The notes under the pieces are model-generated. The model was not told the DNA's origin. It searched no databases and was given only the letters and a program-made list of their open reading frames with translations. The position numbers were made by a program, and so were the translations under genes. A stretch of 64,000 nucleotides of DNA from Polyangiales bacterium (GTDB lineage Bacteria > Myxococcota_A > Polyangia > Polyangiales > Polyangiaceae), in the NCBI GenBank assembly GCA_038231275.1, contig JBBRLQ010000024.1, forward strand, positions 59,244-123,243, written 5' to 3'. The stretch's first letter is position 1; every line of letters begins with the position of its first letter. This document shows, piece by piece, positions 45,766-54,341 of this stretch.

Positions 45766-46902
45766 ATGAGAAGATCTGCCTTGCTGGTTCCCTTCGTCGC
45801 GGGCGCGATGCTCGCTGCGTCCGATGCGTCGGCCACTGGTCATGTCGCCGGGGGAGCGAATCCGCGGCTCTTTCACGCGCACGTGCCGGACGTTGCGCCG
45901 CCGCCCCCGATGCCGACCAAGGATCCGAAGGGTAACCCGCTGCCGAACGTCGGGCCGCCGCCGACGGGGACGTCGAAGATGCCGCTCGTCATCTTGCTGC
46001 ACGGCCTCGCCGTCGACGCGACGATGCAGGACATGTTCTTTCAGCTGCGGACGATCGCCGATCAGCGCCGCTTCGCGTTCGCGTACCTCGACGGCACGCG
46101 CAACGGACTGGGGCTCCAGTTCTGGAACGCCACCGACGGGTGTTGCCAGTTTCCCGCGAACCCAAACTTCGCGACGGCGTTCATGCACGGGATTCACGGG
46201 CTCCTCGGCGCGCTCACGGCGTCGGTCGGGGGGCCGCCGGTCGACGACGTCGGTTACATCGACTCGGTCATCGACGTGATGACCAAGACGTACCCCATCG
46301 ACGAAAAGCGCATCTTCGTCGTCGCCCACTCGAACGGCGGGTTCATGGCGCACCGGTTCGCGTGCGAGAACACGCGCGTCGCCGCGATCGCGACACTCTC
46401 GGGCGCGCAGTGGATGGACGCGTCGAGGTGCCCCGGGACCCACAAGGTATCGGTCCTGCACATCCACGACACGGCGGACGAGATCATTCCCTACGCGGGG
46501 GGCACGCCGCTGCTGTCGCCGCTCTTCTCGCCGGCGATGAGCATCGTGTACCCGAACATCTCGGTGCCGTCGGCGAAGGAGACCGTCGCGCGGTGGGCGA
46601 GGCGCGACGAGTGCAAGGGCGGCCTCACGATGGTCGGCGGTACGAAGGTCGATCTCGAGCAGCGCCTTCCGGGCCCCGACACGCTGATGGAGAAGTACGA
46701 CTGCCCGGCTCCCTACGGCGTCGAGCTGTGGACGATCGAGGGTGGGCCACCGAGGTCGCTGGAGACGCTCGACGGCACGAACTCGGCGCACATCCCGCGG
46801 TTTTACTACCACGGCATGCCGGGTTTCCATGAGCCGCCGGGGAACCAGCCGGCGTTCCCCGACCGCATCTACGACTGGCTCATCGCCCACCCGAAGCCGT
46901 GA
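45766..46902 (+). CDS. Secreted alpha/beta hydrolase (LpqC / PHB-depolymerase-like esterase)
   Basis: Signal peptide, PLVILLHG, WNATDGCC, VDDVGYI, nucleophile elbow AHSNGG, HIHDTAD. Confidence 0.85.
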   Translation: MRRSALLVPFVAGAMLAASDASATGHVAGGANPRLFHAHVPDVAPPPPMPTKDPKGNPLPNVGPPPTGTSKMPLVILLHGLAVDATMQDMFFQLRTIADQRRFAFAYLDGTRNGLGLQFWNATDGCCQFPANPNFATAFMHGIHGLLGALTASVGGPPVDDVGYIDSVIDVMTKTYPIDEKRIFVVAHSNGGFMAHRFACENTRVAAIATLSGAQWMDASRCPGTHKVSVLHIHDTADEIIPYAGGTPLLSPLFSPAMSIVYPNISVPSAKETVARWARRDECKGGLTMVGGTKVDLEQRLPGPDTLMEKYDCPAPYGVELWTIEGGPPRSLETLDGTNSAHIPRFYYHGMPGFHEPPGNQPAFPDRIYDWLIAHPKP

Positions 46903-46910
46903 GGACGACC

Positions 46911-48413
46911 ATGAACACGCCGAGACTTCTCGTCCTCGCCACGCCGACGCTGCTCCTCGCCGCGCTCGCCGCCACGCATTCGGGGCGCGCCGACGCGCTC
47001 ATCAACGGGCGGCCCACGCGCGCCGACGGCTCCGGGTTCGTGCACTTGCACGGCGCGATGTCGACGTGCAGCGGGACGCTCATCGCGCCGGACACGATTC
47101 TCACCAGCAAGGGGTGCTTCACCGCCGCCGAGGTCATCCACGCCGATCTCGCGGGGTGGTTCATGGGCGCGGATGACTCGGACAAAAACGCGCTTCGTGA
47201 GATCCATCCGCACCCGACGCTCGACGCAGCGCTCGTGCGGCTTACGCACCCGATCGTGAGCACGCTCTTCGATCTCTACCCCTTCGAGGCATCGCAGCTC
47301 GTCGGCGCGCGAATGACCTGCAATGGCTACGGCACCATGGGTGGTCCGCAGATCACCTACGGCGGACAGCTGTCGAGCGGCGAGTTCAACGTGCCGTCCG
47401 TCACGCCGACCACGCTCAACGTCGTGAGCCGCGTCCTCTTTGCCGGATACGATCAAGGCGGCGGCTGCGTCGTCGCGCACCAGGGGCGCTCTTTTCTGGC
47501 CGGCGTCATGAGCGTCGCCAACGCCAACCCCACGAGCGTGACCGCGCTGCGCCGCTTCGTCTCGTCGTTCGCGACGTGGCACGAGCTCGAGGCCGGCGAC
47601 ACCGACGTCTGCATCCGTGCGCCGCGATCGGCACCCGCCAACGCGACGACGCCGCTCGAGCTCGCCGCGTGCGACGGCAACCCCAGCGAGGGCTGGGAGG
47701 TGAAGACCGTCGACAACGGCAGCGTGGAGATCCGCGCCAAGGCGAGCAACCTCTGCCTCACCGCGGTCGGCGACGCGCTCGTTCAGGCAATGTGCGGAGG
47801 TGAGATCACCGAGGCGCACCCGGGCAAGCTCCCCAAGCAGCGCAAGCCCGAGCAGATGTGGGCGGTGTCGACCGCCACCGACGGCTTCGTCGAGCTGATG
47901 AGCATCGCGCGATCGGGTCGGTGCATCGAGGCGGTCGGCGTGGGCAAGGGCAATAACGGCAAGCTGACCCTCTCGCCGTGCAATCTCGCGACGCGCAGCC
48001 AGCACCTGCGCATCAACGTGACGCTGCTCGACGAGCGCGATCATCGCCTCGGGGGCGTGCCAGGATGCGCGTCGGCGAAGGAGCTGCGAAGCGCCGGCCC
48101 GATCGGCACCGACGCGTGCAGCGGCAAGGACAACCAGCTCTGGCGCCTCGAGCGCGCGGAACGCCCGTATTTTCTCGTACATTCGCGAGAGGGGCGGTAC
48201 GGGCGCTGCATCTCGTCGAGCGGGAGCGCGCTGCAAGAAGCGGGTTGCATCGGGACGACCGACGCGCAGAAGTGGCGCCTCGAGTACCAGCCGGACGGAA
48301 ACTACTCGCTGCGCGGGAAGCAGACCGGGCACTGCGCCCTCGCGACAGGGGGCGCGCTGGAGCAGATGGCGTGCGACTCGGCGCAGCCGAAGCAGCACTG
48401 GGCGATGGAGTAA
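46911..48413 (+). CDS. Secreted trypsin-like (catalytically degenerate) domain plus two ricin-B lectin domains
   Basis: CSGTLIAP, DAALVRL; QxW-type repeats (QMW, QLW, QKW, QHW) with C-L/I-x patterns. Confidence 0.75.
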   Translation: MNTPRLLVLATPTLLLAALAATHSGRADALINGRPTRADGSGFVHLHGAMSTCSGTLIAPDTILTSKGCFTAAEVIHADLAGWFMGADDSDKNALREIHPHPTLDAALVRLTHPIVSTLFDLYPFEASQLVGARMTCNGYGTMGGPQITYGGQLSSGEFNVPSVTPTTLNVVSRVLFAGYDQGGGCVVAHQGRSFLAGVMSVANANPTSVTALRRFVSSFATWHELEAGDTDVCIRAPRSAPANATTPLELAACDGNPSEGWEVKTVDNGSVEIRAKASNLCLTAVGDALVQAMCGGEITEAHPGKLPKQRKPEQMWAVSTATDGFVELMSIARSGRCIEAVGVGKGNNGKLTLSPCNLATRSQHLRINVTLLDERDHRLGGVPGCASAKELRSAGPIGTDACSGKDNQLWRLERAERPYFLVHSREGRYGRCISSSGSALQEAGCIGTTDAQKWRLEYQPDGNYSLRGKQTGHCALATGGALEQMACDSAQPKQHWAME

Positions 48414-48423
48414 CGACGGTTGG

Positions 48424-48477
48424 GCCGACGCCGACGCCGACGCCGACTCCGACGCCGACTCCGACTCCGACTCCGAC
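48424..48477. repeat. (G/T)CCGAC x9 hexamer array
   Basis: 10 nt after the TAA of the upstream gene. Confidence 0.95.
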
Positions 48478-48551
48478 TTGCGCGTCGGGTCTCGGCGCCT
48501 CATGCTCTCTCCATGAACTTCACCGAGCGCATCTGACGCCGGCCCTCTCTC

Positions 48552-49805
48552 TTGCCGCTCACGCTGGTCACGCTCGCCGACGAGCTGTGGAGCGGCGTGG
48601 CGGTGTGCGGCGCGCCGTCGGTGGAGGACGAGCTCGGGCTGTCGCACCGGGCGTACGTGACGTTCGTGTTCGCCGTGCCGCTGGTCGTCGCGGCCGTCCT
48701 CGAGGGCGGCATCGCGTTGCTCTCGGATTTGCGCGGGCGTGCGCGTGTTCTGGTGCTCGGACAGGCGGCGCTCGCGGCGTCGCTGCTGCTGACGGCGTGC
48801 GCTCGAGGGCCATGGGGCCTCACGATCGGCCTCGCGCTCGCAGGGACGTCCAGCGGCGTCGCGTGCGGTGCAGGGCAGGCGCTCCTGCTCCTTTGCTTCG
48901 GCGACGGTGATGACGCGCGCGATCGCGCGATGGTGCGCTGGACGCTCTACGGCGCAATCGGTGACGTGCTGGCACCGCTCGTCACGGCGGGCGCGGTCGC
49001 GATGGGGTTCTCGTACCGCGCGGCGATGGCGGCGGTCGCGGCGGGAGTTGCCGTCCAGTGCGCGGCGAGCGCGCGACGGCTCCTCCGCACGGAGCCTCCG
49101 CGCGGGGACGCGGACGCGCCGGACTGCGACGCGCCGGCGCCTCTGCGTAGCGCGCTCGCGGCCGCCATCCGTCGTCCCGCGCTGTGGGCGTGGCTCTTCG
49201 CGGCGGCGTCGTGCACGCTCCTCGACGAAGTGATCGTCGCGCTGGCCGCGCTGCGCCTCGTGCGCGATCAAGGTGCCACCGGCGCGCTCGCGGCGGCGTC
49301 GGCCGTGGCGTTCTCGGGGGGCGCGGTCGTCGGTGCGGCGCTCACCGATCGTGCCGTCGCGCGGTGGTCGTCGAGGCGCGTGCTCGTCGCGAGCGCCGTG
49401 GCGTGTGCTGCGGCGCTGGGCGTCTTCGTCGCGTCGACGGCGCCGGTCGCTTCGTGCGCCGCCTTGCTGCTCGTGGGCATCACGTGCGCGCCGCATCACG
49501 CGCTAGCGCTGTCGCGCGCGTACGGTGAGCTTCCCGGCAAGCCGGGAACGGTGCAGGCGATTGGGCAGATTTTCGTCGTGATGGATGTCGCGATTCCCCT
49601 TGCGATCGGAGTCGTGGCGGATCGCTTTGGGCTGGGCGTCGCGGTCGCGTGCCTGCTCGTGCAGCCCGCGGTGATCCTCGCGTGCGCGGTGCCGGGGGGC
49701 GCGGACGCCGACGCCGATTCCGATTCCGACTCCGACGCCGATTCCGATTCCGACGCCGACTCCGACGCCGACTCCGACGCCGACTCCGACTCCGACTCCG
49801 GGTGA
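48552..49805 (+). CDS. MFS transporter with repeat-derived Asp/Ser/Ala tail
   Basis: About 12 TM helices, [11 protein letters not shown] and ADRFG MFS motifs; start uncertain. Confidence 0.8.
49701..49800. repeat. (G/T)CCGA(C/T) x~16 hexamer array inside the MFS 3' end
   Basis: Read directly; left flank of the four-helix-bundle cassette. Confidence 0.95.
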
Positions 49806-49828
49806 CGGGCCTCTCTCGGGTCTGGGCG

Positions 49829-49920
49829 ATTTTGCCGGCGTGCTCGGCGGTGTCAAGGCCGAGCCGGCTGCGCCGGTGCCGCCTGCGGCGGCAGCCTTGA
49901 CACCGCCTGCGCTCGCCGGC
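49829..49920. promoter_or_regulatory. Y-shaped fold-back element, copy 1 (putative ssDNA promoter)
   Basis: 14-bp perfect stem 49846-49859/49894-49907, two triloop hairpins, outer stem 49834-49840/49914-49920; minus-strand TTGACA-N16-CAAAAT. Structure is seen, function is inferred. Confidence 0.7.
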
Positions 49921-49963
49921 TTCGGGGCGGCGCCCCGAGAGAAGGGGGCGCGAGGAGGTTTCG

Positions 49964-50278
49964 ATGTTGAGAGTTTATGAAGAGGTGCTCGAGGTGGTGG
50001 GGATGCTCAGGGAGGTGCTCGGTGAGATCGAGAAGAGGGATGTCGATCTGGGTCGGCAGCTGCGGCGCGCCGCGGCCAGTGTGGCGCTGAACATTGCCGA
50101 GGCGAATGGGAGTCGCGGGAGAAATCGCGGGTTGCGGTTCAGCACGGCGCTGGGCTCGATGCGCGAGACACTCGCATGTCTTCAGGTCGGCGCCGCGTTC
50201 GGGTACGTGGAGATGGACGGTGAGCTGCCGCAGAGGATCGACCGCATCTGCGCGGCGCTCTACTCGCTGGCGAGATGA
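49964..50278 (+). CDS. Four-helix-bundle protein (TIGR02436 / 23S-IVP / Avd-like fold), copy 1
   Basis: [21 protein letters not shown]....[12 protein letters not shown] signature; GAGGAGG Shine-Dalgarno. Confidence 0.9.
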
Positions 50279-50281
50279 GGT

Positions 50282-50322
50282 TCGCCGAGGGCGCCGCGGA
50301 AAACGGCGCCCTCGGCGAGTTT
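50282..50322. terminator. 15-bp perfect hairpin between the convergent genes, probable intrinsic terminator
   Basis: TCGCCGAGGGCGCCG-CGGAAAA-CGGCGCCCTCGGCGA followed by GTTTT. Confidence 0.8.
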
Positions 50323-50640
50323 TCACCGGGACAGGCGGTAGAGAGAGCCGCAGATACCGTCCATTTTGCGTGCAGTCTGCATGCACACCGCCTCCAGGTG
50401 ACCCATCGCAACCGCGACGTCCAAGCAGGCTTGCGTCTCCCGCATCGACCCCAGCGCCGTGCTGAACCGCACCGCGCCATTCCTCCCCCGACTCCCCTGC
50501 GCCTCCGCGACATTCAACGCGACGCTACTCACCGCCCGCCGCATCTGCCGCGCCAAGTCACTATCCCGCTTCTCGATCACCCCCATCGCGTCCTTCAACT
50601 CCCGAATCACCTCCAACACCTCTTCATAAACTCTGAGCAT
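50323..50640 (-). CDS. Four-helix-bundle protein (TIGR02436 / 23S-IVP / Avd-like fold), copy 2
   Basis: [11 protein letters not shown] start identical to copy 1; DLARQMRRAVSSVALNVAEA...[19 protein letters not shown] Shine-Dalgarno. Confidence 0.9.
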   Translation of the reverse strand: MLRVYEEVLEVIRELKDAMGVIEKRDSDLARQMRRAVSSVALNVAEAQGSRGRNGAVRFSTALGSMRETQACLDVAVAMGHLEAVCMQTARKMDGICGSLYRLSR

Positions 50641-50676
50641 CCCAGCCTCCTTCTCCCCTCTCGGGGGCCCCCCTCC

Positions 50677-50766
50677 GCTCGCGAGCGCAGGCGGGGTCAA
50701 GGCTGCCCCGCAGGGGCACCGGCGAAGCCGGCTCGGCCTTGACGCCGCCGAGCACGCGAGCAAGCT
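50677..50766. promoter_or_regulatory. Y-shaped fold-back element, copy 2 (putative ssDNA promoter)
   Basis: Stem 50690-50703/50736-50749 (one mismatch), hairpins TGCCCC-GCA-GGGGCA and CCGGC-GAA-GCCGG, outer stem 50677-50683/50755-50761; plus-strand TTGACG-N16-CAAGCT. Confidence 0.7.
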
Positions 50767-50788
50767 AGCCCCCTCGAGAGAGGAGCAC

Positions 50789-50918
<130 letters not shown>

Positions 50919-50975
50919 TTCCCCCCCGCTCGTCCCCTCGTGCGCGCCGCCCTGGGAAATGCGAGCCTCCCCCTC

Positions 50976-52301
50976 GTGACCGCACGATCCGCCTCGGTTC
51001 TCACCGTCTTCGCGCTCCTCGCGGCGTGCAGCAAAACAGAGCCTCCCGCGCCGGGCCTCCTCGAGGCCGCCCCTACCGTCGCCGCGTCCACCTCTCCTGT
51101 CGACGCAGCGCCGCCCGGAATCGGCGAAGGTGGCGGCACGCTCGAAGCGGAGGGCGCGACGCTGACGATCCCCGAAGGCGCCCTCAGGGGCGCGCGCGTC
51201 TTCACGATCGCGTCCGTGAAAGGTGACGCGCTGGTCGGTTGGCCACGCGGCACCGAGCTCGGCTTCGCCTTCACGCCGGCGGGCGAGCGCTTTCGTGTGC
51301 CGGTGACGATCGCGCTACCGCACCCCGCCAGCCCCGACGGCGGCGGGGGCGGCGGCGAGATCGTCTGCGAGAACCGGCCTGGCGATCGCACCCAGACCCA
51401 GTTCGACGGCACCTTCGACGGCAAGCCGCTGCCCGTCCACGTCAACGTCCTGCCGCGCCGCTGCGCCGTCTATACCGCCGAGCACGCCAAGGCGCTCCAG
51501 GCCGCGCGCGCGAAGGAAGCGGCGATGGTCGACAAGGGGAACACGTCGTACCACTGGGAGATCAAGGGCCAGGTTTGCGATCCACACGATCTGGTACGCC
51601 CCAACGCTGGGCGCGATCTCCGCGAGCCGCCCGGCCTCGGCGGATGCCCGGCCGGGATGGCGCGGATCCCCGGCAGGCCGAGCGCGTGCGTCGACCGCTG
51701 GGAGCCGCACCTCGTCGAGGTGCTGGACGACGGCACGGAGCACACGTGGACGCCGTACTTCAACCCTGCGGGCCTCAAGGTCCGGGCGAAGAGCTCGCCC
51801 GGCGCAGTGCCGCAGGCGTACATCTCACAGGTGCAAGCCGGCGCGGCGTGCGCGGCGTCGGGCAAGCGCCTCTGCAAAGACGACGAGTGGGTGCTCGCGT
51901 GCAAGGGCAGCAAACACACCCAATTTCCCTACGGAAACGAGGAAAAGCGGGGAACATGCAACGATCAACGGGACCCTCACCCGGCGATGCAGTACCTCGA
52001 ATCGCACGATCTCTCAGTGTTCACGAAGCTCGAGCACCCGTGCATCAACCAGGTGCCCGACTCGCTACTGCCAGGCGGCGCGAAGGCCGCGTGCGCGACG
52101 CCCGAGGGCGTCTACGACATCGTCGGCAACCTGCACGAGTGGACGGCCGACCCGAGCGGACACTTCCGCGGCGGGTACTACGTCGACACGTGGCTCAACG
52201 GTCACGGGTGCGACTACGTCACGACCGCGCACGAGGCGCGGTACTGGGACTACTCCACCGGCTTCCGCTGCTGCGCAGACGCGCCCGCGCGCGACCAGTA
52301 G
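50976..52301 (+). CDS. Lipoprotein with C-terminal FGE-sulfatase/SUMF1 domain
   Basis: Lipobox AAC; CPAGMA, GKRLC...EW..AC, FPYG, GVYDIVGNLHEW, FRGG, GFRCC. Confidence 0.85.
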   Translation: MTARSASVLTVFALLAACSKTEPPAPGLLEAAPTVAASTSPVDAAPPGIGEGGGTLEAEGATLTIPEGALRGARVFTIASVKGDALVGWPRGTELGFAFTPAGERFRVPVTIALPHPASPDGGGGGGEIVCENRPGDRTQTQFDGTFDGKPLPVHVNVLPRRCAVYTAEHAKALQAARAKEAAMVDKGNTSYHWEIKGQVCDPHDLVRPNAGRDLREPPGLGGCPAGMARIPGRPSACVDRWEPHLVEVLDDGTEHTWTPYFNPAGLKVRAKSSPGAVPQAYISQVQAGAACAASGKRLCKDDEWVLACKGSKHTQFPYGNEEKRGTCNDQRDPHPAMQYLESHDLSVFTKLEHPCINQVPDSLLPGGAKAACATPEGVYDIVGNLHEWTADPSGHFRGGYYVDTWLNGHGCDYVTTAHEARYWDYSTGFRCCADAPARDQ

Positions 52302-52335
52302 AGTGAGAGCGGGCTAGGCGAGGGCTAGGCGCTGT

Positions 52336-53469
52336 TCAGACGCCGCCGCTCGCGCCGGCCTTCGCGCTGATGCTCGCGCTCGCCTGAACACTGACTCGCA
52401 GCGACGCTTGCGCGGAGATCGTCGCGTTCGCGGCCGCCGCGATGCACGCGCCGGCGTGGGCCGTCAGCTGACCGAGCGCGCTCGGCAGCTCGCTGCCCGA
52501 CTGGACGAGAACCTGCACGTCGCCGGCGATGCGGCGGCCGTACGCGATCTCGGCGGTGACGAGGACGGGGAGGTTCGCTTGCAGCGTGGCGATGAGCTTG
52601 CCCATCTCGCCGGTATTCACCGTCGCGTGGACGGCGACGCGCGCCTCGGTGCACCGCGCGGTGAGCTCCGCGTGCGCTTTGCAGCTCCCGGCGCAGTGGG
52701 CGTCGGCGCTCGGCGCCTTCACGGCGACGTCGCACTTGGGCTCCTTGAAGTCGACCGTGCACGCGCCGTGGCAATCGGCAGTGCACGTCCCCTTGCACGT
52801 TCCGTTGCATTGGCCCGCACACTGGCCGGCACCCGCGGCGCTGCCCGCCGCCGCATGCGCTTGGCCCGCGCACTGCCCCTGGCACTCGCCGTTGCACGTC
52901 CCGGCGCACTGGCCGGAGCACGTCCCCTCGCATCGTCCATAGAGGTGCCCGGGCTCGCAGTGCGCCTTCACGTAGCCGGGGTCGACGTTCACGTTGCATG
53001 CGCCCTTGCATGCTGCTTCAGCGTCGGCGTGGACCTCACATTGCGGCGGGGTGACGTCGGCCTTCACGGACGCAGAGACGCCCGTTCGGAGGATCGCATC
53101 CATTCGCGCGGACACCGCGTTGCACGCTGCAGCGACGCGTCCCTCGTTCTGTCGCGGCGTCATCTGCTCGGGAGGGACGCCCAGATCACGGCCCATGCGC
53201 TCGCACGCGACGCCGACCTCGGCCTCGGCCTTCGCGGCGATCGTCTGCAGGTCGCCGCTCGCGGTGACGAAGGCGCGGATCGTCGCGTTCGCGCGCGCGT
53301 CCGCCTCGAACGACGCGTTCATGGCGCCGCCTTGGAGCTCGGGACACGCGAAGTTGCCGAGCGCGCCCGCGGCGCCCGTCCCTCCGGCGCCGAACTCGCC
53401 TCCGCACGCGACGACGACCGCGCCAACGAACCCGCAGACCACGATGTACTTCGCCGACGTTCGGATCAT
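52336..53469 (-). CDS. Cys-rich (CxGxC repeat) lipoprotein
   Basis: GGAAGAGG Shine-Dalgarno, lipobox VAC, central CEGTCSGQCAGTCNGEC repeats. Confidence 0.8.
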   Translation of the reverse strand: MIRTSAKYIVVCGFVGAVVVACGGEFGAGGTGAAGALGNFACPELQGGAMNASFEADARANATIRAFVTASGDLQTIAAKAEAEVGVACERMGRDLGVPPEQMTPRQNEGRVAAACNAVSARMDAILRTGVSASVKADVTPPQCEVHADAEAACKGACNVNVDPGYVKAHCEPGHLYGRCEGTCSGQCAGTCNGECQGQCAGQAHAAAGSAAGAGQCAGQCNGTCKGTCTADCHGACTVDFKEPKCDVAVKAPSADAHCAGSCKAHAELTARCTEARVAVHATVNTGEMGKLIATLQANLPVLVTAEIAYGRRIAGDVQVLVQSGSELPSALGQLTAHAGACIAAAANATISAQASLRVSVQASASISAKAGASGGV

Positions 53470-53606
53470 GTGCCCCTCTTCCTTGCCGATAGTGGATGAG
53501 GTGCGCAAGGCACGATGCGCGCCACCCGGAGGGCGCGCATAACGCGGGCGAAACGAAGACTACGGACGCGCTCGACCTCCGCATGCGGCGCAAATGCGCC
53601 ACACGA

Positions 53607-54341
53607 TCAGATCGCTCGCCCGAGCGCCTCGTCGACGCTGCGCTGGCTGAAGCCGACCATGATCTTGCCCTTCACGTCGAGGACGGGGATGGAGCCCGCG
53701 CGCAGGCCGTTCTTCGCGAGCTTTTGCTGCATCTCGCGCGCGGCTCCCTGATCGGTCTCCACGTTCTTTTCGATGAACGCCACGCCCTTCTTCCGCAGGT
53801 ACGCGGCGGCGTCGTGGCAGGCGGTGCACCAGTCGGCACCGTAGATGATGACGAGCGGGCGACCGTCGGGCGGCGGATCGGCTTGCGCGAGCGGGCTTCC
53901 GGGTTGCTGGCGAGGAATGCTCGGCGGCGCGTCGCTCGCGGGGGGTGCCGCGCTCGCTAGGGTCGGACCGTTCTTCTCGCGACGCGTCACCGCGAGCTGA
54001 TCGAACTCGAGGCGCGACATGGTCTTGACGGGGTAGAGGCCACCCGCGCCCGCGACGCGCAGGTCCGCGACGAAGACTTTGTCGGCGTGCGTTCCGTCTT
54101 CGCGCGCGGGATCGACGACGCGGACGGCGTCGCGTCCCTCGAGCGGCACGTCGGTCGGGCGAACTTCGACGTGGAAGTCTCCCTTCGCGTCGATCCACGT
54201 GAGGAGCAGCCCCTCGGTTGCGTCGCGGACCTCCACCGTCACGGGCGGATCCGCGGTGGCGCCGCCGTTGCCCTTCCGGCACCCACCGATGGCGAAGAGC
54301 ATCACGAGGGAGAGCGTGACGAGGAAGACGATTCGATTCAT
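53607..54341 (-). CDS. Lipoprotein with C-terminal glutaredoxin (NrdH-like) domain
   Basis: Lipobox GGC; IYGADWCTAC, IPVLDV.G..MVGF. Confidence 0.85.
   Translation of the reverse strand: MNRIVFLVTLSLVMLFAIGGCRKGNGGATADPPVTVEVRDATEGLLLTWIDAKGDFHVEVRPTDVPLEGRDAVRVVDPAREDGTHADKVFVADLRVAGAGGLYPVKTMSRLEFDQLAVTRREKNGPTLASAAPPASDAPPSIPRQQPGSPLAQADPPPDGRPLVIIYGADWCTACHDAAAYLRKKGVAFIEKNVETDQGAAREMQQKLAKNGLRAGSIPVLDVKGKIMVGFSQRSVDEALGRAI

Follow-up and report, generated by a model that had tools for sequence, protein, structure and literature searches.

The window analysed here, 64,000 nucleotides (nt) from a Polyangiales bacterium (GTDB family Polyangiaceae; GenBank assembly GCA_038231275.1, contig JBBRLQ010000024.1, positions 59,244 to 123,243 of the forward strand), contains two copies of a branched hairpin, each standing in front of a gene for a small four-helix-bundle protein. 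Copy A lies at 49834..49920 on the plus strand and copy B at 50677..50761 on the minus strand, in each case in the sense orientation of the gene (window coordinates are used throughout). The question raised by this locus is in which form such a hairpin is selected, as RNA, as duplex DNA or as single-stranded DNA (ssDNA), and what it could do for the gene beside it. A first-pass annotation, made from the sequence of the window, had proposed that it folds as ssDNA on the template strand of the gene. We found that the hairpin belongs to a covarying family that is linked to the four-helix-bundle gene, that it carries DNA-type motifs on the template strand specifically, and that the same strand holds promoter-like boxes in a defined geometry. 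We tentatively favour the reading that the folded template strand is an ssDNA promoter or initiation signal.

Copy A consists of an outer stem (P1, 7 base pairs, bp), a conserved internal loop, an inner stem (P2, 14 bp) and two arms with 3-nt loops. When the two copies were aligned, the outer stem GCCGGCG/CGCCGGC of copy A was seen to be replaced by GCTCGCG/CGCGAGC in copy B, i.e. two pairs were changed with compensation, and the arm TGCCGCC/GGCGGCA by TGCCCC/GGGGCA, with one G-C pair lost; both changes are as the first-pass annotation had read them. The 14-bp stem, which it regarded as retained, is intact in copy A, but in copy B it has a C.C mismatch at the place of a T-A pair of copy A. All four arm loops are indeed 3 nt long and read GCA or GAA with C-G closure on the antisense strand (on the sense strand TGC and TGC in copy A, TTC and TGC in copy B). 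Both copies take the same branched shape on both strands, whether folded as RNA or as DNA, with z-scores from -3.55 to -8.32 (200 shuffles each), and none of the shuffles folded equally well. At query positions 5-83 the two hairpins share 94% identity, while the two genes are 73% complementary as DNA and 62% identical as protein; the non-coding structure is thus better kept than the coding sequence. It was thereby confirmed that the two hairpins are copies of one branched hairpin with compensatory changes.

In the source genome these are the only two copies found, both by blastn and by R1, a covariance model built from 57 aligned hairpin copies (89.9 bits for copy A, 88.4 bits for copy B). A blastn search of the GTDB family to which the source genome belongs gave relatives (E<=1e-3) in 78 of 201 genomes, though many of the weak matches may be due to chance. 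R1, for which no more than 29 candidates were scored in any genome, matched 48 of 151 genomes of that family, from 37 of 89 genera. The copy number by R1 ranges from the 2 of the source genome through 7 in the same-genus genome G019 to a maximum of 17 (G108). In many relatives a copy is found no more than about 100 nt from where a contig ends (e.g. G100:C609:4-90, G019:C47:13-103, G088:C64:70-154), as would be expected if the adjoining arrays break short-read assemblies; these numbers are therefore lower bounds. We gathered 138 distinct copies, of which one was dropped for containing an N. In 117 of the resulting 137, the stem is followed on the same strand by an open reading frame (ORF) of the PF05635/TIGR02436 four-helix-bundle family, at a median gap of 45 nt; 8 others had too little sequence to judge, and 12 had no such ORF. 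A tandem array is present within 250 nt upstream in 98 of 132 copies, at a median gap of 62 nt; 91 of these arrays have a period of 6, with unit sequences that differ between loci. Among 50 loci taken with 1.5-kb flanks, paired cassettes were convergent in nine cases, tandem in one and divergent in none, with the hairpins outward and the genes inward. One locus, L160 (G106:C2:1857083-1860214), is a tandem run of cassettes with five R1 copies in the same orientation, about 630-660 nt apart.

Pairing was then examined in an alignment of 57 relatives (alignment A2). The results showed that 93.7% of the pairing cells are complementary, against 76.3% in shuffled alignments and 29-48% when the partners were slid, and that 22 of the 31 pairs have changed on both sides (242 cells); in none of 500 shuffles was the observed value of any pairing measure matched. 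We concluded that the pairing of the hairpin is under selection. P1 varies freely, with compensatory changes, and so does the proximal half of P2, while the distal half of P2 (GTCAAGGC/GCCTTGAC) and the internal loop are conserved in sequence. The arms differ in length and also in number: there may be two or three of them, or nested modules in which the internal-loop motif recurs. The whole element measures 79-127 nt. The insert between the two half-stems ranges from about 30 to 70 nt across copies, which fits intrastrand pairing and not a fixed duplex operator. In the nested variants, of 104-127 nt (L151, L155, L157, L158, L165, L170 and L147, from G066, G045, G125 and G047), the nested arm repeats the whole order of stem, GTGCTCG/CTGCGCG internal loop and stem, so that the internal-loop motif is a reusable module. 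Outside P1, the two flanks of a copy contain a complementary run of at least 7 nt in 42 of 116 copies, compared with 18% of mismatched flank pairs. In these 42, this outer helix is separated from P1 by a loop of 13 x 14 nt (median).

Covariation alone does not distinguish between the strands, and we therefore counted loops and mismatches in DNA-parameter folds of the 137 copies on either strand, antisense denoting the template strand of the gene. Triloops are about equally common, with 213 of 281 loops on the antisense strand (about 76%) and 215 of 288 on the sense strand. Triloops of the c(GNA)g type, however, make up 182 of the 281 antisense loops and 3 of the 288 sense loops. The mini-hairpin heptamer GCGNAGC occurs 198 times on the antisense strand, in 112 of the 137 copies, as against 11 times on the sense strand, and the wider form NCGNAGN' with a complementary outer pair 273 times against 16, mononucleotide shuffles giving 34.6 +/- 6.1. 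The additional arms of the three-arm and nested variants have the same GNA loops. The tetraloops GNRA and UNCG, in contrast, appeared 0-1 times each on the antisense strand and never on the sense strand, in DNA and RNA folds alike. The mismatches of the antisense strand are G.A (105), A.A (42), G.G (39) and tandem GA/GA (21), which on the sense strand become T.C, T.T, C.C and tandem TC/TC. By our own reading, the conserved internal loop would form a CGAG/CGNAG purine motif on the antisense strand. Wobble cells in P1 and P2 number 29 of the antisense type and 15 of the sense type; they are ambiguous, being too few and not independent. The stability of c(GNA)g loops in DNA, on which the first-pass annotation had drawn as background, is in print: excerpts of PMC13037366 give d(GCGAAGC) a melting temperature of 76.5 C, as against 39 C for r(GCGAAAGC), and place mini-hairpin GNA motifs in the origins of phages G4, St-1 and alpha3, in ssiA and in the N4 early promoters. 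The annotation had pointed to homologues as the place to look for covariation and for a preference for GNA loops, and both were found there, the latter strong and strand-specific. Its central proposal, an ssDNA fold on the template strand, is supported in part: the covariation, the GNA loops and the types of mismatch fit it, and the calculated energies, given below, barely separate the two strands.

A second asymmetry lies in the conserved positions of the stems. On the antisense strand, the 3' arm read from loop to base contains the hexamer TTGACN (T 96%, T 64% or G 29%, G 96%, A 94%, C 62%), followed by a 16-nt spacer and then, beginning at the last pair of P1, by C (66%) or T (15%), A (99%), three variable bases and T (94%) (132 copies). 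The A and the last T, at the positions -11 and -7 of a sigma70 promoter, are present together in 128 of 135 copies. On average over the 135, 4.33 of the 6 bases of TTGACA and 3.08 of the 6 of TATAAT are matched. A best sigma70-like score of at least 8 of 12 was reached by 61 of the 135 copies on the antisense strand and by none on the sense strand. A promoter scan of 49600-51000 reported a sole site, TTGACA, 16 nt, CAAAAT (10 of 12; shuffles 0.0), at 49856-49829 on the minus strand, antisense to gene A: its -35-like hexamer (49851..49856) lies in the P2 arm, in register with the family, and its -10-like box (49829..49834) at the foot of the hairpin, where it faces non-complementary bases. The corresponding stretch of copy B, antisense to gene B (50739..50766, plus strand), reads TTGACG, 16 nt, CAAGCT; A-11 and T-7 are kept, and the match to the consensus is weak. 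Because the bases opposite are rich in G and C, A-11 and T-7 cannot pair, and all five -10 positions are unpaired in 44 of 116 minimum-free-energy folds. Candidate sigma54 boxes and an intrinsic terminator, which were examined by eye or by scan, were unsupported, as was sequestration of the ribosome-binding site by the hairpin, since that site is not sequestered.

These findings are consistent with the following mechanism, which we put forward tentatively. The hairpin would be the fixed non-coding module of a selfish cassette made up of a hexamer array, the hairpin and the four-helix-bundle gene, and it would be selected for folding as ssDNA on the template strand of that gene. In the fold, P2 and P1 could rebuild a duplex -35 element (TTGACN) with its 16-nt spacer, leaving the -10 bases A-11 and T-7 unpaired at the foot of the stem. 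Because the promoter faces from the loop towards the stem foot, and the 5' flank of the folded strand, which is the antisense of the gene, would be the template, the product would be the mRNA of the gene itself. We infer that the strand does at times become single-stranded, through replication, transfer or an excised intermediate, and that the host sigma70-type RNA polymerase then uses it, so that the four-helix-bundle mRNA would begin some 12 nt beyond the stem; copies without a gene would give rise to a primer RNA instead of an mRNA. The strictly convergent arrangement of the pairs could then be understood, because one of the two genes would be readable whichever strand was exposed.

Several observations weigh against this mechanism. 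The boxes of copy B fall under the threshold of the promoter scan, and in the family the -10 is weak (the mean of 3.08 given above), T-12 being present in just 15% of copies. The conservation of the -35 is inseparable from that of the stem, as both arms carry the hexamer, and in 10 copies a mismatch at pair 19-68 spoils the hexamer of the antisense arm, not that of the sense arm. Since ANNNT is its own reverse complement, its direction is set by the -35 only. The spacer contains a conserved GAGCAC motif that a sigma70 promoter does not require. In nearest-neighbour energy the two strands are on average 0.53 kcal/mol apart when folded as DNA (p=0.011), and RNA folds show no difference (p=0.87); in one sub-family the loops of the second arm are purine-rich on the sense strand; and a wobble of the sense type is common at G30.T44, as described below. 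The chromosomal cassettes, with ordinary genes as neighbours, gave no sign of a single-stranded state beyond normal replication, and the wider neighbourhood in the window is ordinary chromosome in which no recombinase, relaxase, reverse transcriptase or integrase gene was found. Finally, by eye, other hairpin families that precede four-helix-bundle genes (contig C80 of the source genome, and L184) showed no boxes like TTGACN or ANNNT.

The hairpin is also found outside the cassette. Of the 12 gene-less copies, 7 (L131, L148, L150, L162, L167, L176 and L177; more widely L191-L198) belong together as a sub-family, marked by a conserved tail about 60 nt long in which CTCCGG repeats occur, and in L148 and L192 a 15-bp outer helix surrounds a loop of 16 x 20 nt. 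Transposase genes of insertion sequences (IS) adjoin 4 of the 8 gene-less loci that were fetched with wider flanks, namely one IS110, one ISL3 and two IS21, and they start right after or beside the conserved tail. In a blastn search against plasmids, the whole hairpin was matched at about 74% identity in 11 Bradyrhizobium records, with R1 scores of 48-66 bits; these plasmid copies are gene-less. Of the R1 matches on three plasmids, 5 of 6 are preceded, at a distance of 15-275 nt, by an IS110-family transposase gene encoded on the same strand. The Bradyrhizobium and metagenome hairpins (L187-L190, L206-L208; L345, L401) have a conserved tail ending in AAAGAATG, and one copy is solitary. Metagenome and viral collections were scanned with a 14-base pattern, and 80 of the 120 listed stretches per scan, mostly chance matches, were examined; R1 confirmed 3 of 80 in the metagenomes and 0 of 80 in the viral scan, and a blastn search of the phage collection with the hairpin gave no match. 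Two of the metagenome copies lie within a unit flanked by terminal inverted repeats (TIRs) that resembles a miniature inverted-repeat transposable element (MITE). By eye, the ANNNT box is kept in 6 of the 7 copies from outside the myxobacteria. As the hairpin occurs without the gene beside insertion sequences, it is an independent mobile non-coding module, and the four-helix-bundle cassette is its main carrier in the Polyangiaceae.

An alternative that we consider unlikely is that the hairpin acts as RNA of the sense strand, being the 5' leader of the four-helix-bundle mRNA: a processing site for RNase III as in the intervening sequences (IVS) of 23S rRNA, a site bound by the protein that the gene encodes, or a relic or analogue of one binding loop of an IS110/IS1111 bridge or seek RNA. 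The fixed orientation and the short distance to the gene would suit a leader, IVS stems that carry the same gene family are cut by RNase III according to excerpts of PMC4990558, and G30.T44 is a sense-strand wobble in 53 of 58 copies. The loops of such an RNA would however read C(UUC)G and C(UGC)G, neither GNRA nor UNCG occurring among 262-288 loops, its mismatches would be U.C, U.U and C.C including tandem UC/UC, and the apparent wobble at T8 looks like an obligate mismatch, because the base opposite is G (73%) or T (24%). No sigma70-like site in the sense direction was seen within 150 nt upstream of the hairpin (0 of 113 with a score of at least 8, the mean being that of shuffles), and, as said above, the ribosome-binding site is left free. 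No relevant Rfam match was obtained for window positions 47000-54000 (E up to 1) or for the orphan and Bradyrhizobium loci (E up to 0.1), where the only rows, IRES_Bip, MIR8788 and a snoRNA, were all far under the gathering score. The bridge or seek RNA variant, drawn from parts of PMC11208160 and PMC11187229, has in its favour that in Bradyrhizobium the module directly follows IS110-family transposase genes and shares their coding strand (in L192 it precedes such a gene), and the outer stem, large internal loop and distal stem of the bridge-RNA binding loop (PMC11208160, in part) resemble the hairpin. We down-weighted it, since the module adjoins three nearly unrelated lineages of IS110-family transposases (by BLASTP, no similarity between those of L207 and L188, and 25% identity between those of L192 and L188), while the modules themselves are alike at 48-66 bits and are thus not co-evolving guide RNAs. 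IS21 and ISL3 elements adjoin the same module, ANNNT persists in it, and the loop bases next to P1 are conserved, not programmable.

A second alternative, somewhat less probable still, is a single-strand recombination or target site of the kind known from REP (repetitive extragenic palindromic) sequences and attC, by which a recombinase or transposase acting in trans would move the cassette or an IS would home, the boxes being incidental. The varying copy number between close relatives noted above, the occurrence of gene-less tailed modules beside IS110, IS21 and ISL3 transposases, the two TIR-flanked copies, and the conserved mismatches and bulged base, which resemble marks of strand choice, would all agree with such a site; and excerpts of PMC12288879 provide a precedent in IS110 elements that sit in REPs with a hitch-hiking module. 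The comparison with two genomes of the same genus, G019 (C109, L095) and G098 (C815, L096), bears on both sides. Their homology begins just to the right of the cassette, at about 50955-51010 of the window, and at this right-flank orthologue they have no cassette, no array and no MFS gene (E<=1e-10), so that the cassette stands at a break of synteny and the orthologous downstream gene exists without it. On the other hand, this comparison, in which the left flank is absent from both genomes so that the boundary cannot be drawn, revealed neither a clean empty site nor a target duplication. No recombinase is linked to the cassettes, the source genome having yielded one partial IS110 match only, and a recombination site would leave the fixed distance and orientation of the gene and the A...T box unexplained.

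That the element is an ordinary double-stranded signal, either a sigma70 promoter that has a palindromic operator and points outward at the hexamer array, or a cruciform that supercoiling extrudes, is highly improbable: TTGACN, 16 nt and ANNNT would work in duplex DNA, and arrays do lie beyond the box at the distance and frequency reported above, but a duplex promoter has no need of the complementary arm and yet both stems covary, the spacing of the half-sites varies from 34 to about 75 bp, the conserved mismatches and large centres disfavour a cruciform, and the gene itself would be left without a recognisable promoter.

Several known systems resemble the element in part. It may be compared with the T-shaped terminal hairpins of the parvovirus AAV (adeno-associated virus), whose ssDNA makes a three-way fold from two short arms that have loops of 3 nt, and with the attC sites of integrons, which fold on one particular strand and have a variable top as well as extrahelical bases that are conserved. 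Unlike the AAV hairpins it does not lie at the end of a genome; neither a Rep nor an IntI gene is near it, and no R or L boxes of attC were seen. The closest parallel to an ssDNA promoter is Frpo/ssi of the plasmids F and ColIb-P9, where, as set out in portions of PMC11541004, ssDNA folds into a duplex-like -35/-10 and drives genes encoded on the transferred strand. Here, as there, the folded strand carries a duplex -35 with the promoter facing the hairpin base, and the gene to be driven uses the folded strand as template and lies just beyond. The two differ in that there is no sequence similarity, that our element is chromosomal in Myxococcota rather than part of a plasmid leading region or T-strand (and without a confirmed viral locus among the 80), that it has a branched top bearing GNA triloops, that its -10 is weak and unpaired rather than duplex, and that no UP element was seen. 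With the phage origins, ssiA and the N4 early promoters cited above from PMC13037366, the element shares c(GNA)g with sheared G.A on one strand; those signals are read by primases or by the N4 virion polymerase, whereas here the boxes around the motifs look sigma70-like, and the element that hosts them is a gene cassette.

Two further likenesses concern the cassette as a mobile unit. In the ORF-bearing IVS of 23S rRNA (Coxiella; S23p of Leptospira), the PF05635/TIGR02436 family likewise travels with a long stem as a selfish unit, according to portions of PMC4990558. The element differs in lying outside rRNA, between genes of the MFS and FGE-sulfatase types, in having its gene outside the stem and not in the loop, and in motifs that point to DNA, while the IVS stem acts as RNA through RNase III. 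With REP and BIME (bacterial interspersed mosaic element) sequences and with ISPpu9-MITEPpu9 (excerpts of PMC12288879), it shares a repeated palindromic module beside IS110-family transposases together with solo copies, and a REP-like or hitch-hiking module beside IS110 is a better analogy than a bridge or seek RNA. It is however branched and, at 79-127 nt, three to four times longer than a REP (about 35 bp); it has at most 17 copies found per genome where REP/BIME have hundreds; and no REP-associated tyrosine transposase (RAYT) turned up, though RAYT was not searched for.

In the window the two cassettes form a mirror-image unit of 1.2 kb, in the order array, hairpin A, gene A, inverted repeat, gene B, hairpin B and array, and the unit is flanked by a gene for an MFS-type transporter and one of the FGE-sulfatase type. 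The left array (49704..49800; Tandem Repeats Finder, TRF) has 16 copies of the period-6 unit GACTCC and doubles as the 3' end of the MFS-type ORF 48552-49805 (Pfam MFS_1), where it is read as a (D-S/A) tail, possibly through an artefact of ORF calling. It is followed by the 5' strand of an outer helix P0 of copy A (CTCTCGGG, 49813..49820, plus strand), whose partner CCCGAGAG lies at 49934..49941 (plus strand), beyond the hairpin; P0 was recognised in the sequence and in the fold of the extended antisense strand. Gene A (49964..50278, plus strand) encodes 104 amino acids with matches to PF05635 (E=9.2e-13), TIGR02436 and PDB entry 2gsc (E=2.5e-6), and gene B (50323..50640, minus strand; PF05635, TIGR02436) encodes 105 amino acids; 2gsc is the nearest solved relative of both proteins. 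Between the convergent genes, a repeat search found a perfect 15-bp inverted repeat (50282..50318), which is likely a terminator; it is without a qualifying T-run, and the terminator scan made no call there. The right array (50787..50918; TRF) has 22 copies of the period-6 unit GACCCC. The two arrays are direct repeats of each other despite the mirror symmetry of the unit between them, and single cassettes such as L066 have inverted arrays. Further to the left, the ORF 46899-48413 (plus strand), which is unrelated to the hairpin, encodes a protein in which a pair of Ricin-type beta-trefoil lectin domains was recognised, together with a stretch weakly similar to CDtoxinA (E=2.8e-6).

Elsewhere in the source genome, contig C80 (L033:1-1030), which begins at a hairpin, carries a second convergent PF05635 pair with unrelated long perfect hairpins over the Shine-Dalgarno sequence and the start codon of either gene, adjoining a (GGTCGY)n array. 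On contig C145 (L034:470-1150), a weak PF05635 match (29.6 bits) follows an array of the heptamer CGCGAAC and a GC-rich palindromic region, the latter ending with a CCGCCTGCGC motif that resembles the 3' side of the R1 internal loop.

Proteins of the PF05635/TIGR02436 four-helix-bundle family, which include the 23S-IVS protein and relatives of Avd of diversity-generating retroelements (DGRs), are very widespread, and to our knowledge those outside DGRs have no known function. In the literature retrieved by the protein family names together with hairpins, with supplements outside the search, no description of the present hairpin element was found. Even if the promoter reading fails, what we describe is an undescribed, strongly covarying, structured element that crosses phyla, has about 200 canonical DNA mini-hairpin motifs on one strand, and links four-helix-bundle cassettes with insertion-sequence hot spots. 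The most far-reaching form of the ssDNA promoter reading, which we hold to be doubtful as a whole, is a chromosomal selfish cassette with an ssDNA promoter of its own, built as a Y-shaped hairpin with mini-hairpin loops, sheared G.A pairs, a duplex -35 and a pre-opened -10. Its gene, of the Avd/IVS type, would be switched on through the host RNA polymerase only when the strand is single-stranded, its mirror pairs would serve either strand, and its gene-less module would be a priming or expression signal for other mobile DNA, such as MITE-like units and IS110-adjacent sites, in at least two phyla. If the ssDNA promoter reading is true, a conserved DNA structure of the template strand ties the expression of the four-helix-bundle gene to a single-stranded state of the DNA, and the family would gain a bench handle in ssDNA transcription and probing assays. 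If it is confirmed, ssDNA promoters would extend from the leading regions of plasmids and a few phages to chromosomal cassettes of the Myxococcota, and perhaps to MITE-like modules of the Alphaproteobacteria as well.

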